Below are positions 2,890 through 10,208 of a DNA stretch of 10,539 nt, one piece after another. Under the pieces are notes generated by a model. It worked only from the letters and a program-made list of their open reading frames with translations, did not search any database and had not been told where the DNA came from. This DNA comes from a virus. The stretch is taken from UHGV virus genome UHGV-0159509. One strand, given 5' to 3'. The translations under genes and the position numbers were made by a program. Every line of letters starts with the position of its first letter. Positions within the stretch are counted from its first letter, which is position 1.

Positions 2890-2909
2890 CCTCAATATCC
2901 CATCCATCG

Positions 2910-2933
2910 GCCACCGAAAGGTGGCTTTTTATT
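2910..2933 (+). terminator. Rho-independent terminator downstream of the repressor gene
   Basis: Perfect 6-bp GC-rich stem GCCACC/GGTGGC (2910-2915 with 2920-2925) closed by a GAAA tetraloop, followed by TTTTT (2926-2930). Confidence 0.8.
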
Positions 2934-2939
2934 ACCCAC

Positions 2940-2995
2940 CATTTTGCATATTTCGCAAATATTACTTGCATATCTCGCAATTTAATTTTATCTTT
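2940..2995 (+). promoter_or_regulatory. Putative OL/PL-like operator-promoter (second cluster of CGCAA motifs)
   Basis: ATTTCGCAAATAT (2950-2962) and ATCTCGCAATTTA (2972-2984) resemble the CGCAA half-sites of the cI/cro intergenic region. TTGCAT -35-like hexamers at 2944-2949 and 2966-2971, with AT-rich -10 candidates around 2983-2994. Confidence 0.4.
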
Positions 2996-3143
2996 TGTTC
3001 CAGACCAACTACAGGATTACAACAAAATCTGGTTGCAACACGGTGCATGTGTCGTAAGCAGTCAGTAAATGTCAAAAACGAACAGGCAGGACGCCCACGA
3101 AGTAGCCGCCTGGGGCATATGAAGTCCAGGATGATTCGTTAGC

Positions 3144-3170
3144 AACAAAAAAGCGCCCTACAGGACGCTT
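3144..3170 (-). terminator. Candidate intrinsic terminator for the minus-strand 144-aa gene
   Basis: Hairpin AGCGCC-CTACA-GGaCGCT (3152-3169, one bulge). On the minus strand it is followed directly by TTTTTTGTTG (complement of 3141-3150). Confidence 0.45.
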
Positions 3171-3184
3171 AGCTCTTTAACAAT
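3152..3184 (+). promoter_or_regulatory. Antiterminator-like site: hairpin followed by rrn-type boxA (GCTCTTTAACAAT)
   Basis: 3172-3184 GCTCTTTAACAAT matches the E. coli rrn boxA core as I recall it (TGCTCTTTAACAA). It is preceded by the 3152-3169 hairpin in the boxB-then-boxA order seen in rrn leaders, and lies between the putative PL and the first plus-strand ORF. Confidence 0.45.
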
Positions 3185-3228
3185 CTGGTCCCCATCAACA
3201 AGTAACTGATAACTTGAGGAGATGTGAA

Positions 3229-3435
3229 ATGCACAAAACAGAACCCAAAATCGTCGCGCCTGGCTACACAGATGAGGAAATTTATGAGTGGATGACAAAG
3301 AAGCTGGCAGCTATAAACCAGCTTCGTGAAGTGCTGTCTTATCGACAGGAAACAATAGACTCCTTAAAAAAACTGGATCAGGAAATCACGGTTTTATCAC
3401 AGGATGTTACTTTAGATATTGTGCAGACAAATTAG
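3229..3435 (+). CDS. Hypothetical small protein (68 aa, predicted helical/coiled-coil)
   Basis: ATG at 3229 with SD GAGGA (3216-3220, 8-nt spacer). AT-rich codon usage. The 3' end overlaps the convergent 144-aa gene by 29 nt. No recognisable family. Confidence 0.5.
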   Translation: MHKTEPKIVAPGYTDEEIYEWMTKKLAAINQLREVLSYRQETIDSLKKLDQEITVLSQDVTLDIVQTN

Positions 3436-3841
3436 GATCCCATTCATTTTCGTCAAAATCATCAAAGTGATGAATTTGTGATCTCCAGTCTCGATAATCT
3501 AAAAATTTCTGGGCGGTTACGCTTATTTTATCAAGTGTGAGTTCATCCTGAATTGAAAGAAGAAGTTCATCAAATTTCATCTCATTAATCTGTTTTGGCA
3601 TCCAGTGATGCTTCATCAGAATAAGGTGAACCAGAGCCTTTTTCCCATTCAACTGATTATAGGGAGTGCCGAATTTCTTCCGGTGCTCATGTAAGACAAG
3701 GTCCAAAAGAGTAAGTAATGTTGCCCTTGATTCAACTTTGCTTATTTCGACTGATGACACTACCCCACTGATTTCAATGCCCCGATACTTTCCAACATTT
3801 TCACAGTGGGATTTGTACAGCGTATAGATATTACCGGACAT
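3407..3841 (-). CDS. Hypothetical protein (144 aa), AT-rich accessory gene in the immunity region
   Basis: ATG at 3841-3839 with SD AAGGAAAAG upstream on the minus strand. A long ORF in AT-rich DNA, where stop codons are frequent. No transmembrane stretch and no recognisable domain. Opposite in orientation to the flanking early-left genes. Confidence 0.65.
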   Translation of the reverse strand: MSGNIYTLYKSHCENVGKYRGIEISGVVSSVEISKVESRATLLTLLDLVLHEHRKKFGTPYNQLNGKKALVHLILMKHHWMPKQINEMKFDELLLSIQDELTLDKISVTAQKFLDYRDWRSQIHHFDDFDENEWDPNLSAQYLK

Positions 3842-3856
3842 TTCTTTTCCTTTTGC

Positions 3857-3908
3857 GTTGTTGGGGATAACCAGATTAACCGAATCCTTGTTGTTGGGGA
3901 ATAACCAG
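3857..3908. repeat. Two direct repeats GTTGTTGGGGA(A)TAACCAG upstream of the 144-aa gene
   Basis: R1 at 3857-3874 (18 nt) and R2 at 3890-3908 (19 nt, one extra A), 33-bp period, 16 nt from the start codon of the minus-strand gene. Confidence 0.6.
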
Positions 3909-4127
3909 GTCCACCTCGCCTGATGTGGCTAAAAGCAGGCACATAACAGCTAAGTATTTTCAACCAGAGAGAATCCTTAGCGTTGTGGTGAATGCGGCTC
4001 AGCGCACGCGGGTTAAGGTTGAGGCTGACAGTCGACCTTCTGTGGATACCCACCCGCCTGGTGTGCAACCTTCGCCAGGCACCGGGAGGCACCCGGCACC
4101 ACAACTTTATGCTGTGTGTAGTCCTGG

Positions 4128-4172
4128 CGGTACCAGTTTGTACCCTTGCTTCCGGCTGGTACCGTCCTTTTT
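4128..4172 (+). terminator. Terminator-like hairpin inside the structured island
   Basis: 9-bp perfect stem CGGTACCAG/CTGGTACCG (4128-4136 with 4156-4164), 19-nt loop, followed by TCC then TTTTT (4168-4172). Confidence 0.45.
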
Positions 4173-4261
4173 ACAAAACAGAGAAGAGCATCACCGGACG
4201 ACGGGCTCATAACCCAATCCATCCGGGCGGCTGCCACCGCAGGTGTTCTTCTCTGTTTTGT
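4173..4261. repeat. Long inverted repeat (18-bp stem, 53-nt spacer) just upstream of the first early-left gene
   Basis: 4173-4190 ACAAAACAGAGAAGAGCA pairs with 4244-4261 TGTTCTTCTCTGTTTTGT: 17 Watson-Crick pairs plus one G-U in RNA. The GC-rich interior (4191-4243) has further CCGG/CCGGG pairing potential. Confidence 0.6.
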
Positions 4262-4309
4262 GGAGAAACCAACCGACCTTGCAGGGTCGATATGATGAGG
4301 AGCAGCAAA

Positions 4310-4672
4310 ATGGCTAGCGAACGCAGTACTGATGTGCAGGCATTTATCGGGGAGCTGGACGGCGGCGTATTTGAAACCAAAATCGGCGCAGTTCTCAGTG
4401 AAGTCGCTTCCGGTGTGATGAACACGAAAACCAAAGGTAAGGTCTCACTCAACCTGGAAATCGAACCATTTGATGAGAACCGTGTGAAAATCAAACACAA
4501 ACTCTCATATGTTCGCCCGACTAACCGCGGGAAAATTTCCGAAGAAGACACCACCGAAACGCCGATGTATGTCAATCGCGGTGGTCGCCTGACTATTCTG
4601 CAGGAAGACCAGGGACAATTACTGACTCTTGCCGGTGAACCTGACGGAAAACTCCGCGCAGCAGGTCATTAA
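4310..4672 (+). CDS. Hypothetical prophage early protein (120 aa; YfdP-like by size and position)
   Basis: ATG at 4310 with SD GAGGAG (8-nt spacer). The upstream in-frame extension to 3992 is GC-rich nonsense. Size and position upstream of the YfdQ-like gene match my memory of CPS-53 yfdP; unverified. Confidence 0.75.
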   Translation: MASERSTDVQAFIGELDGGVFETKIGAVLSEVASGVMNTKTKGKVSLNLEIEPFDENRVKIKHKLSYVRPTNRGKISEEDTTETPMYVNRGGRLTILQEDQGQLLTLAGEPDGKLRAAGH

Positions 4673-8641: not shown

Positions 8642-8677
8642 TTTTCCCGGGTGCAGCCGGTTTTGATGGAGAAAATT

Positions 8678-8959
8678 ATGAACACCTTGTTTTTACTGAT
8701 GGCTGAATTCAATACCCCAAACATTGAACTCTCAGCAGTTAGCCAAAAGTACTTTGGTATGAGTCCAGCCACGGCAGAAGCAAAAGCAAACGCTTGTAAG
8801 TTGCCCGTTCCAACATATCGCATCGGCACATCACAAAAAGCAAAACGTTGCATCAATATTCAGGATCTTGCGGAATACATAGACAAAAGACGAGAAGAAG
8901 GACGTATCGAGTGGGAACAGGTCAGAACAAGCAAACAGAAGGGCAAAGAACATCACTAA
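8678..8959 (+). CDS. Excisionase-like / PrtN-family DNA-binding protein (putative Xis)
   Basis: 93 aa from ATG 8678 with SD GGAG (6-nt spacer). Resembles the PrtN/excisionase-like family (MNTLFLLMAEF..., basic C-terminus). Last gene of the early-left operon, the classic xis position. Confidence 0.6.
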   Translation: MNTLFLLMAEFNTPNIELSAVSQKYFGMSPATAEAKANACKLPVPTYRIGTSQKAKRCINIQDLAEYIDKRREEGRIEWEQVRTSKQKGKEHH

Positions 8960-8961
8960 AT

Positions 8962-8987
8962 AAAAAACCCGCCTTTAGGCGGGTTTT
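8962..8987. terminator. Bidirectional rho-independent terminator between convergent operons
   Basis: AAAAAA-CCCGCC-TTTA-GGCGGG-TTTT: perfect 6-bp GC stem with a 4-nt loop, flanked by an A-run and a T-run, so it can terminate both strands. Confidence 0.85.
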
Positions 8988-9006
8988 CAAAAAGCACCAG
9001 CTATGA

Positions 9007-9219: not shown

Positions 9220-9639
9220 TTACTCATCATCAATAGATGATACGCAATATTTATTTTTAAATTTAAGGTTCTTTGGCGTAACTTCATCAGATATATCAAA
9301 ACCGTCCAGAATTCTATTGAATGTAGCTTCTGGCATATCATCATGAACGGAAATCTCACCCGATCGCTGCTTTCTAACCATGTTATCCACTCGCCAAATT
9401 ATAGCTTCAGCGTAAACAACATAACTTGGATGCTTGATAAAGCGATGATCACCAGAATTCAAGACGCAAGACGGATCGTGGGGGACACCATCCTTGATAC
9501 TAGAAATATTAACAACTAAAACACAATAACAATCGTTAACGGGGTAATAAACAGGATCATTACAAATCACATGAAGATGATTGCATGGCCCAGTTGGGGC
9601 AAGCACAGTTCCTTTCCTGTATGGCTGATAATCCGTCAT
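9220..9639 (-). CDS. Hypothetical protein (139 aa), candidate toxin/effector partner of the Panacea-domain protein
   Basis: ATG at 9639-9637 overlaps the upstream gene's stop by 4 nt (ATGA). Soluble, Cys/His-containing (GPCNHLHVICNDPVYYPVNDCYC... DH ... VHDD), AT-rich. No recognisable family. Confidence 0.65.
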   Translation of the reverse strand: MTDYQPYRKGTVLAPTGPCNHLHVICNDPVYYPVNDCYCVLVVNISSIKDGVPHDPSCVLNSGDHRFIKHPSYVVYAEAIIWRVDNMVRKQRSGEISVHDDMPEATFNRILDGFDISDEVTPKNLKFKNKYCVSSIDDE

Positions 9640-10208
9640 GATAATTGCAAAGAAAATTCCTTAAGTTTCTGAGATTCTTCCATTTTGCCAATTATGCGAT
9701 TAGCCTCATCCTCGCTTTTACCCTCACTGATCAGCATTTCTTTCAGGTCTATAGGCTTACGAGAATTGCCAGGATCGTGCCACTCTGGACAAACGCTTTC
9801 TAAATGCGTCATATTTGCGAGATCAAATCGGTTCATATGCCCATACAGAGAATAGATTTCATCTAAAATCCGGATATCTGCACGGCTCAACTCATCAAAG
9901 ACCTCGTCTGCATCCATTTCCCTCGGATCTGAACGCAACAACACATCATGCCCGTTCGTCTCTATCAGGTTGTACCAGTAGTCACCAATACCTTCAGCCT
10001 TACCACGAATCAAGTTCAGCGTATTCGACATGACTGGACCAAATTTCATAGAGTAAAGGCTATCTTCGCCGATCATCCTGCCATGCTTCAAAATCGACTG
10101 GCGGTTAGACAGATAGAGCAACTTCATCAATTTCAGATATGCCATGCGCCCACCTCGCTTAAGAAGTAGGTATGCAGCCATTTGAGCTACTTTTTCTTCG
10201 CAAAACAT
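9636..10208 (-). CDS. Panacea (DUF4065/SocA-like) domain protein, putative antitoxin PanA
   Basis: 190 aa with ATG at 10208-10206 and SD GAGG on the minus strand. The N-terminal region (VAQMAAYLLLKRGGRMAYLKLMKLLYLSNRQSILKHGRMIGEDSLYSMKFGPVMSNTL) follows the conserved DUF4065/Panacea pattern as I recall it. First gene of a two-gene overlapping cassette. Confidence 0.75.
   Translation of the reverse strand: MFCEEKVAQMAAYLLLKRGGRMAYLKLMKLLYLSNRQSILKHGRMIGEDSLYSMKFGPVMSNTLNLIRGKAEGIGDYWYNLIETNGHDVLLRSDPREMDADEVFDELSRADIRILDEIYSLYGHMNRFDLANMTHLESVCPEWHDPGNSRKPIDLKEMLISEGKSEDEANRIIGKMEESQKLKEFSLQLS

Follow-up and report, generated by a model that had tools for sequence, protein, structure and literature searches.

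A predicted minus-strand terminator joined to an rrn-type boxA, and a conserved junction RNA, in the early-left leader of a lambdoid prophage

We identified a module of about 45 nt in the early-left leader of a lambdoid prophage (positions 3141–3188 of the window, i.e. the whole 10,539-nt stretch of virus genome UHGV-0159509 that was analysed), in which a predicted minus-strand intrinsic terminator is joined to a perfect rrn-type boxA on the plus strand. The best explanation for this module is a different function on each strand. For boxA, the most likely function appears to be recruitment of Nus factors independently of N, probably as an accessory anti-Rho device that is tied to reverse-oriented cargo and is not the main substitute for N. 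The module is a variant of known stand-alone boxA/Nus control. We computed sequence features, conservation, constancy of genomic context and strand asymmetry, from which we infer Nus binding, an anti-Rho effect and the role of a junction RNA in the same leader.

The window covers the early control region of a lambdoid prophage that belongs to the SfII/SfIV/SfV/CPS-53 type and has phages Kati, 569R4, 689R6 and SfIV as nearest relatives (99% identity from position 3070 on). An O-like replication gene with origin iterons (9–950), a cII-like gene (1295–1846) and cro (1839–2099) are located on the minus strand, and cI (2197–2889) on the plus strand, which is the PL ('leftward') direction. The cI transcript has an intrinsic terminator 5' of PL (2909–2926, plus strand, GGCCACCGAAAGGTGGCT followed by TTTTATT), which is annotated likewise in SfII. 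Because exact matches to the operator pattern TTGC-N7-GCAA occur on the plus strand at 2944–2958 and 2966–2980, with a further match in the cro–cI interval (2162–2176), OL/PL was placed just 5' of boxA. PL is a putative promoter (2966–2994, plus strand) with a -35 element TTGCAT (2966–2971), a 17-nt spacer and a -10 element TATCTT (2989–2994), and would start transcription at about position 3000; it was placed from the operators and from homologues, and scored below threshold in a generic promoter scan. Related phages have homologous promoters directly 5' of the leader RNA. Within the O-like gene, at least five direct repeats with 15-nt spacing (507–652, consensus about CAGATTTTGACGGGT) show the arrangement of lambda-type origin iterons; a match to the Rfam family 'mir-5880' was rejected as spurious, as it arises from this repeat region.

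The leader between PL and the first ORF is about 230 nt long. The first translated gene after boxA is a YdfC-like small ORF of 68 aa (3229–3435, plus strand; PHROG 1744, E = 6e-35) with the Shine-Dalgarno sequence GAGGAG at 3216–3221. It is met by a convergent cargo gene of 144 aa (3407–3841, minus strand; PHROG 5286, E = 1.5e-90), whose product has no match in Pfam and through which the PL transcript runs antisense. The plus-strand operon continues with yfdP, yfdQ and further genes and ends at a bidirectional terminator near 8975 (GAAAACCCGCCTAAAGGCGGGTTTTT, 8963–8988), after a PrtN-like gene (8651–8959). On the minus strand 3' of this terminator (9220–10208), a 139-aa ORF and a 190-aa SocA/Panacea-domain protein form a pair that looks like toxin-antitoxin or defence cargo.

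The boxA core GCTCTTTAACAAT (3172–3184, plus strand), with a conserved extension CTGG to position 3188, is a predicted NusB–NusE (S10) site, located about 175 nt 3' of OL/PL and on their strand; no plus-strand terminator separates PL from boxA. It is the sole copy in the window at up to two mismatches, and about 3e-4 copies of the exact 13-mer are expected by chance on both strands of 10.5 kb. Every one of the 5426 complete E. coli genomes has the rrn leader sequence (GCGGCACTGCTCTTTAACAATTTATCAG...) at 100% identity, the median genome holding seven copies, about 95 nt 5' of the 16S rRNA; since this sequence contains the exact 13-mer, the boxA of the window is identical to that of rrn. It fits both the rrn sequence UGCUCUUUAACAA and the gammaproteobacterial NusB/E consensus GYTCTTTAANA (Baniulyte et al., PMC5725501). 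An earlier sequence-only reading of this DNA had described a near-exact rrn boxA 3' of PL in a window without an N-like ARM protein, and each of these points was borne out. The core is identical to rrn at 13 of 13 positions, and the operators at 2944–2980 lie just upstream on the same strand. The ORFs of the PL operon encode no N-like protein, with PHROG and Pfam matches only to families unrelated to N, and the arginine-rich stretches of the window all fall in out-of-frame overlaps of real genes. Neither boxC (UGUGUGGG; 3185–3230) nor any hairpin (3185–3228) was found 3' of boxA, and the PR direction of the window has no boxA.

The hairpin that precedes boxA (3151–3170, stem AAGCGUCC/GGGCGCUU) is asymmetric between the strands. 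Read on the minus strand, it has a clean 8-bp stem with a G·U pair at the mismatch site and the loop UGUA, followed by UUUUUUGUU, and folds at -11.5 kcal/mol by itself and at -15.6 kcal/mol within its sequence context; the U-tract corresponds to the plus-strand A-tract at 3147–3152 and beyond, and several module variants have UNCG-type loops on this strand. Read on the plus strand, it has a C·A mismatch and no U-tract, and its folding energy of -7.5 kcal/mol (z -0.3 to -0.6) is about that of shuffled sequences. Judged from these features, the hairpin is a predicted minus-strand intrinsic terminator (3141–3170) that would end convergent cargo transcripts, and because a minus-strand gene regularly follows the module, it is assigned to the reverse-oriented cargo behind the PL leader. 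Termination of the convergent gene, which the sequence-only reading had offered as an additional property of the hairpin, is thereby upheld as its main role. The same reading had seen an rrn-like order of boxB and boxA; a hairpin does precede boxA, but it is weak on the plus strand and is probably not an rrn-type boxB, as its loop is free to vary (TACA, CGAA, CGTA, ATC and others among homologues), the plus-strand C·A mismatch is conserved and only the minus strand has the U-tract. Owing to the conserved A in GGACGCT, the stem is perfect when read on the minus strand but not on the plus strand, which may reflect selection for one-way termination; if this base were G, a strong plus-strand hairpin would form directly before U-rich sequence and could stop PL transcription or occlude boxA. 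A second minus-strand terminator-like hairpin (GAAGCTGG...CCAGCTTC followed by TTTGT, 3300–3325) falls within the YdfC-like ORF, with the convergent gene on one side and the terminator of the module on the other.

BLAST comparisons resolved the leader homology to other phages into separable blocks (3072–3142 and 3145–3186), the second of which occurs alone in Klebsiella phages. A scan of IMG/VR with the boxA 14-mer gave chance matches in the main, together with many copies of the arrangement AAAAAAGCGCCC-loop-GGACGCTT-N-GCTCTTTAACAAT-CTGG in unrelated flanks. Circularity was avoided by re-collecting loci by the hairpin alone and then by the hairpin plus the upstream junction RNA. In the latter set, for which boxA was not used, boxA was present in 14 of 15 distinct downstream contexts; variation was limited to the base before G (A/C/T), the consensus N (C or A), one G-A-TCTTT variant and all that comes after AACAATCTGG. 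A further scan of one genome per species, with a pattern of the 3' arm and boxA only, recovered 26 true module copies, in differing flanks, from at least 12 genera of Enterobacterales (Escherichia, Shigella, Enterobacter, Scandinavium, Buttiauxella, Symbiopectobacterium, Atlantibacter, Edwardsiella, Sodalis, Kosakonia, Citrobacter, Mangrovibacter, Raoultella and Pseudescherichia). The A-tract is kept in most of these copies, the 5' arm AAGCGCCC stands directly before a 4-nt loop in 25 of the 26, and the consensus N is C in 17, A in five and G in four. Sequence constraint on boxA across homologues thus follows GYTCTTTAANA. The 129-nt stretch that comprises junction RNA and module is covered to at least 80% in 1086 of 5426 complete E. 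coli genomes and is never annotated in them. Rfam 15 gave no match at 3000–3230 even at permissive thresholds, so that neither element is a curated family.

The genomic context of the module is nearly constant. A plus-strand cI-like gene ends 177–290 nt 5' of it in 32 of 34 viral loci, and for 32 of the 34 the first downstream gene of at least 70 aa is a minus-strand gene, the other two having a short plus-strand ORF first; the first downstream gene (60–70 aa or more) is likewise on the minus strand in 22 of the 26 species-level loci. The convergent genes of PhiR29_1 and Kp4884-1 end 15–25 nt past boxA. The cargo behind the module differs between phages. The terminator half by itself already accounts for this association with convergent genes. 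The two halves are very often joined, yet separable: the terminator stem is found without boxA in 87 other contexts, and boxA is found without the hairpin in the PL-like leaders of loci L072, L010 and L008; boxA also occurs in T7-like contigs. SfII, AH07 and YeP1 have a convergent gene but no boxA. The module spreads as a unit, and recent horizontal transfer could account for part of its conservation.

These distributions bear on whether boxA acts on the PL transcript at all. It might be a relic of an ancestral nutL, or a hitch-hiker with a successful terminator cassette, which would agree with a module that moves as one homologous unit, with a position that the terminator alone accounts for, with the many relatives that lack boxA, and with the 87 other contexts in which the stem stands without boxA. 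We consider a boxA without such function rather unlikely, as the boxA core, in contrast to the diverged loop, linker and flanks, keeps its consensus and varies mainly at N, and as boxA also stands in the hairpin-less PL-like leaders and in the T7 group.

The RNA downstream of the module has no credible plus-strand coding over about 860 nt (3436–4294), where it is the antisense of the cargo and contains an STnc100-like RNA; homology to YfdP begins only at residue ~101 of the ORF at 3992–4672. Long untranslated RNA is a natural substrate of Rho, and a C-rich, G-poor stretch at about 3710–3850 is a candidate Rho loading region. The STnc100-like structured RNA (3952–4174, plus strand) scored 43.1 bits in Rfam (E = 9e-7), below the gathering score of 47, and its 3' end forms a hairpin (4126–4166; -23.1 kcal/mol, z -3.2) followed by CCUUUUUAC. 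The plus-strand segment 4126–4172 looks like a strong intrinsic terminator inside the PL operon, just 5' of yfdP; complexes of the rrn type are generally considered weak against intrinsic terminators. Untranslated runs have a median length of 862 nt in loci with the module and 595 nt in loci without it (one-sided p = 0.04), a weak trend towards longer runs that was obtained with a crude ORF caller and carries no weight in the interpretation.

On the minus strand, the terminator would halt convergent accessory-gene transcripts before they reach the PL leader, OL/PL and cI. On the plus strand, PL transcription would pass the stem, because the C·A mismatch weakens it and no U-tract follows. The next 13 nt of PL RNA would be the perfect boxA, to which NusB–NusE (S10) would bind on its emergence about 175 nt past the start; NusA, NusG and SuhB would then join, forming an N-independent complex of the rrn or CRISPR-leader type that would keep Rho off the polymerase over the next ~860 nt of untranslated RNA, so that yfdP, yfdQ and the remaining early-left genes could be expressed. 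As judged from sequence, the proposal that boxA loads a host Nus complex on the PL transcript and shields untranslated RNA from Rho has about an even chance of being right, and some Nus-dependent function of boxA a somewhat better one. Recruitment of the Nus/rrn complex without N, as the sequence-only reading had suggested, stays plausible with a genuine boxA on the PL leader and no N. In reporter constructs and CRISPR arrays, boxA and Nus factors keep Rho from terminating transcription although N is absent (PMC5725501, PMC7665894, PMC12360218); Nus complexes at boxA can also promote Rho termination, as is the case for suhB (PMC5725501, PMC12360218).

A role of the latter kind would reverse the sign of the effect: NusB/E bound to boxA would repress translation of the YdfC-like ORF, leading to Rho termination and less early-left expression. 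The spacing in the window suits such negative control, as the boxA core ends 32 nt before the Shine-Dalgarno sequence and 45 nt before the start codon (ATG, 3229), which is inside the 50-bp limit applied in finding suhB-type sites (PMC5725501), and the mechanism is established for suhB (PMC5725501, PMC12360218). The suhB 5' UTR has a boxA of the same consensus that is likewise less than 50 nt from the start codon (Baniulyte et al. 2017); it promotes Rho termination by repressing translation, whereas most copies of the module have no plus-strand ORF behind them and are followed by the convergent gene, often within 10–30 nt. Because of these contexts, suhB-like control cannot be the conserved function, and we regard it as very unlikely.

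The leader contains a further conserved element, which the sequence-only reading had overlooked. A three-way-junction RNA of about 65 nt, separate from the terminator/boxA module, occupies 3075–3143 on the plus strand (P1 3077–3082/3135–3140, P2 3085–3090/3106–3110, P3 3111–3114/3125–3128). It is located a few to a few dozen nt past the PL start in many phages and was found in SfII, SfV, ST64B, phiNP, ZF40, Pantoea AH07, Yersinia YeP1, SPN3UB and mEp237, as well as in several Klebsiella phages and many IMG/VR contigs. In an alignment of 27 distinct homologues, which strongly supports the junction, pairing extends to 91.9% of cells as compared to 75% in shuffles and 22–46% with slid partners, and the 56 double-sided changes were reached in none of 500 shuffles; the covariance-model score is 93 bits. 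P1 and P3 covary strongly: P1 shows swaps of the whole helix (AGCGAA/UUCGCU, GUCAUC/GAUGAC, ACCACC/GGUGGU), and P3 is swapped too. The P2 loop region and the GGAUGA junction are almost invariant, and a nearly invariant loop region of 25 nt looks like a binding surface. The covariance model found no second copy on the PR side of the window.

Membership of the junction RNA in the put family of HK022 and HK639 was rejected, as only short motifs are shared and the covariance model R1 scores neither HK022 putL/putR nor HK639 putL. The two are alike in being about 65 nt long, in their position directly after PL in an N-less lambdoid phage and in the motifs CGAAC... and ...GGAUGA, but put consists of two tandem stem-loops, whereas in the junction RNA P1 closes a three-way junction. 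A hammerhead ribozyme, considered for the GAUGA junction, was likewise rejected: the 'GAA' positions covary as Watson-Crick pairs of P1, and no strand is present between P2 and P3.

Other parts of the leader are shared more widely. The first ~70 nt of the PL transcript (3000–3070) are homologous to the leader of mEp460 (locus L137, 2395–2470), which has neither junction RNA nor boxA and contains ACGGCG...CAUGCGUCG, shared with stem I of HK022/HK639 putL; the window counterpart ACGGUGCAUGUGUCG looks like a shortened remnant of this mEp460/putL stem I motif. A conserved block (G)CGCAGCAGGTnnAAACGTTCCGCTGGCCAGCGnTACAGGCA with a palindromic hairpin (L005, 2965–3000; also L063, L133, L134 and L135) is located between the junction RNA or promoter and the module or first gene in several Klebsiella, Salmonella and E. 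coli phages.

The module could be the principal N-independent early antitermination system of the phage, with the hairpin acting as an rrn-like boxB; a perfect rrn boxA in a PL leader without an N protein and the order of hairpin and boxA, which is as in rrn and also found in T7, speak for this. Twelve phages of the same layout, however, have the junction RNA but no module, and the consensus GYTCTTTAANA is absent from their loci of 3–10 kb, so that boxA is dispensable in the junction-RNA backbone. The PR direction lacks boxA, the hairpin is optimised for the minus strand with a loop that is not conserved, and a strong plus-strand terminator stands at 4126–4172, against which an rrn-type complex would probably be ineffective. 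Taken as the principal system, the module is quite unlikely, and the earlier proposal that boxA replaces N is weakened accordingly. Because all 12 boxA-less relatives keep the junction RNA, PR has no boxA and the terminator at 4126–4172 is strong, the junction RNA is the better candidate for the role of N. From its position and conservation, it is more probably the general put-like antiterminator of N-less phages, to which boxA would be an add-on.

The leader could also be a reversed nut site, in which an unrecognised phage RNA-binding antiterminator occupies either the hairpin or the junction RNA and acts together with the Nus factors on boxA. Both structures are near boxA, and the near-invariant 25-nt loop region of the junction RNA would offer such a protein a target. 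A site of this kind is nevertheless extremely improbable given that no arginine-rich or N-like protein is encoded, that the loop of the hairpin varies and that the junction RNA is found without boxA as well as boxA without the junction RNA.

Compared to known systems, the module, with its proposed Nus loading on the PL transcript, resembles the rrn leader site (boxB-boxA-boxC; NusA/B/E/G, S4, SuhB), with which it shares all 13 positions of the boxA core, a hairpin directly 5', independence of a phage protein and an expected effect of Rho resistance on untranslated RNA. It differs from rrn in the lack of boxC, in an upstream hairpin that is predicted to be a minus-strand terminator and is probably not a conserved boxB, and in its location in a phage early operon, fused to an opposite-strand terminator. 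The nut sites of lambda, P22 and 21 (boxA-spacer-boxB plus N) likewise place boxA in the early leftward leader 3' of OL/PL, with Nus recruitment presumed, but the module has no boxB 3' of boxA and no N, and its boxA is of the rrn type and not the weaker lambda CGCUCUUA. The leaders of CRISPR arrays have a stand-alone boxA before a long untranslated transcript, which blocks premature Rho termination without an accessory RNA-binding protein (Stringer et al. 2020, PMC7665894); in the window, by contrast, the untranslated RNA is antisense to cargo in a phage operon and the putative anti-Rho role is read from the sequence.

A phage boxA without N is not unprecedented, as the early leader of T7 has an 18-mer (GCTCTTTAACAATCTGGT, T7 nt 813–830; L266 414–431) identical to window positions 3172–3189. 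It is located 63 nt after promoter A3, with a hairpin GUCACCACACUGAAAGGUGAU before it, and bears no annotation in RefSeq. T7 resembles the prophage in having no N, in transcription of this leader by host RNA polymerase and in a hairpin 5' of boxA, an order kept in the T7-like IMG/VR contigs L062 and L097, but neither a convergent gene nor a terminator adjoins its boxA (after promoters A1–A3). The extension AAU(C/U)UGG, common to both, points to a longer boxA consensus in phages. A boxA in the T7 early leader has reportedly been noted with no function assigned, and it is not known to have been tested for one.

A literature search with the exact sequences returned a T7 construct table only. Searches on boxA with prophages or N-independence, of incomplete coverage, found no account of the module, of its placement behind PL before reverse cargo, of its spread in enterobacterial prophages or of the junction RNA. 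On how N-less lambdoid phages (SfV, SfII/IV, ST64B, phiNP, LLS and others) pass the terminators of their early operons, a genome paper from 2025 offers only the conjecture 'perhaps put-like' (PMC12315714). The two elements described here offer mutable cis sites: module and junction RNA make early antitermination in N-less lambdoid phages directly testable, and the module is common and unannotated.

We tentatively propose, as a possibility that we hold with less than even confidence, that SfV/SfIV/ST64B-type N-less phages use a protein-free, two-part early antitermination, composed of a junction RNA in a put-like role (a new class with a fold unlike that of put, acting on intrinsic terminators) and a portable 45-nt 'one-way gate'. 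If true, this gate would be a strand-selective terminator plus an rrn-type boxA that lets reverse cargo sit in the early operon: in one direction it would stop cargo transcripts, and in the other it would load Nus factors and so make the phage transcript proof against Rho. The fusion of terminator and boxA would be a compact design for insulating reverse-oriented cargo, such as morons and defence genes, within an operon. If it acts in this way, stand-alone boxA would extend N-independent Nus control from rRNA, suhB and CRISPR to prophage operons, in about one fifth of E. coli genomes, with relevance for prophage gene expression, Rho-mediated prophage silencing and synthetic biology.
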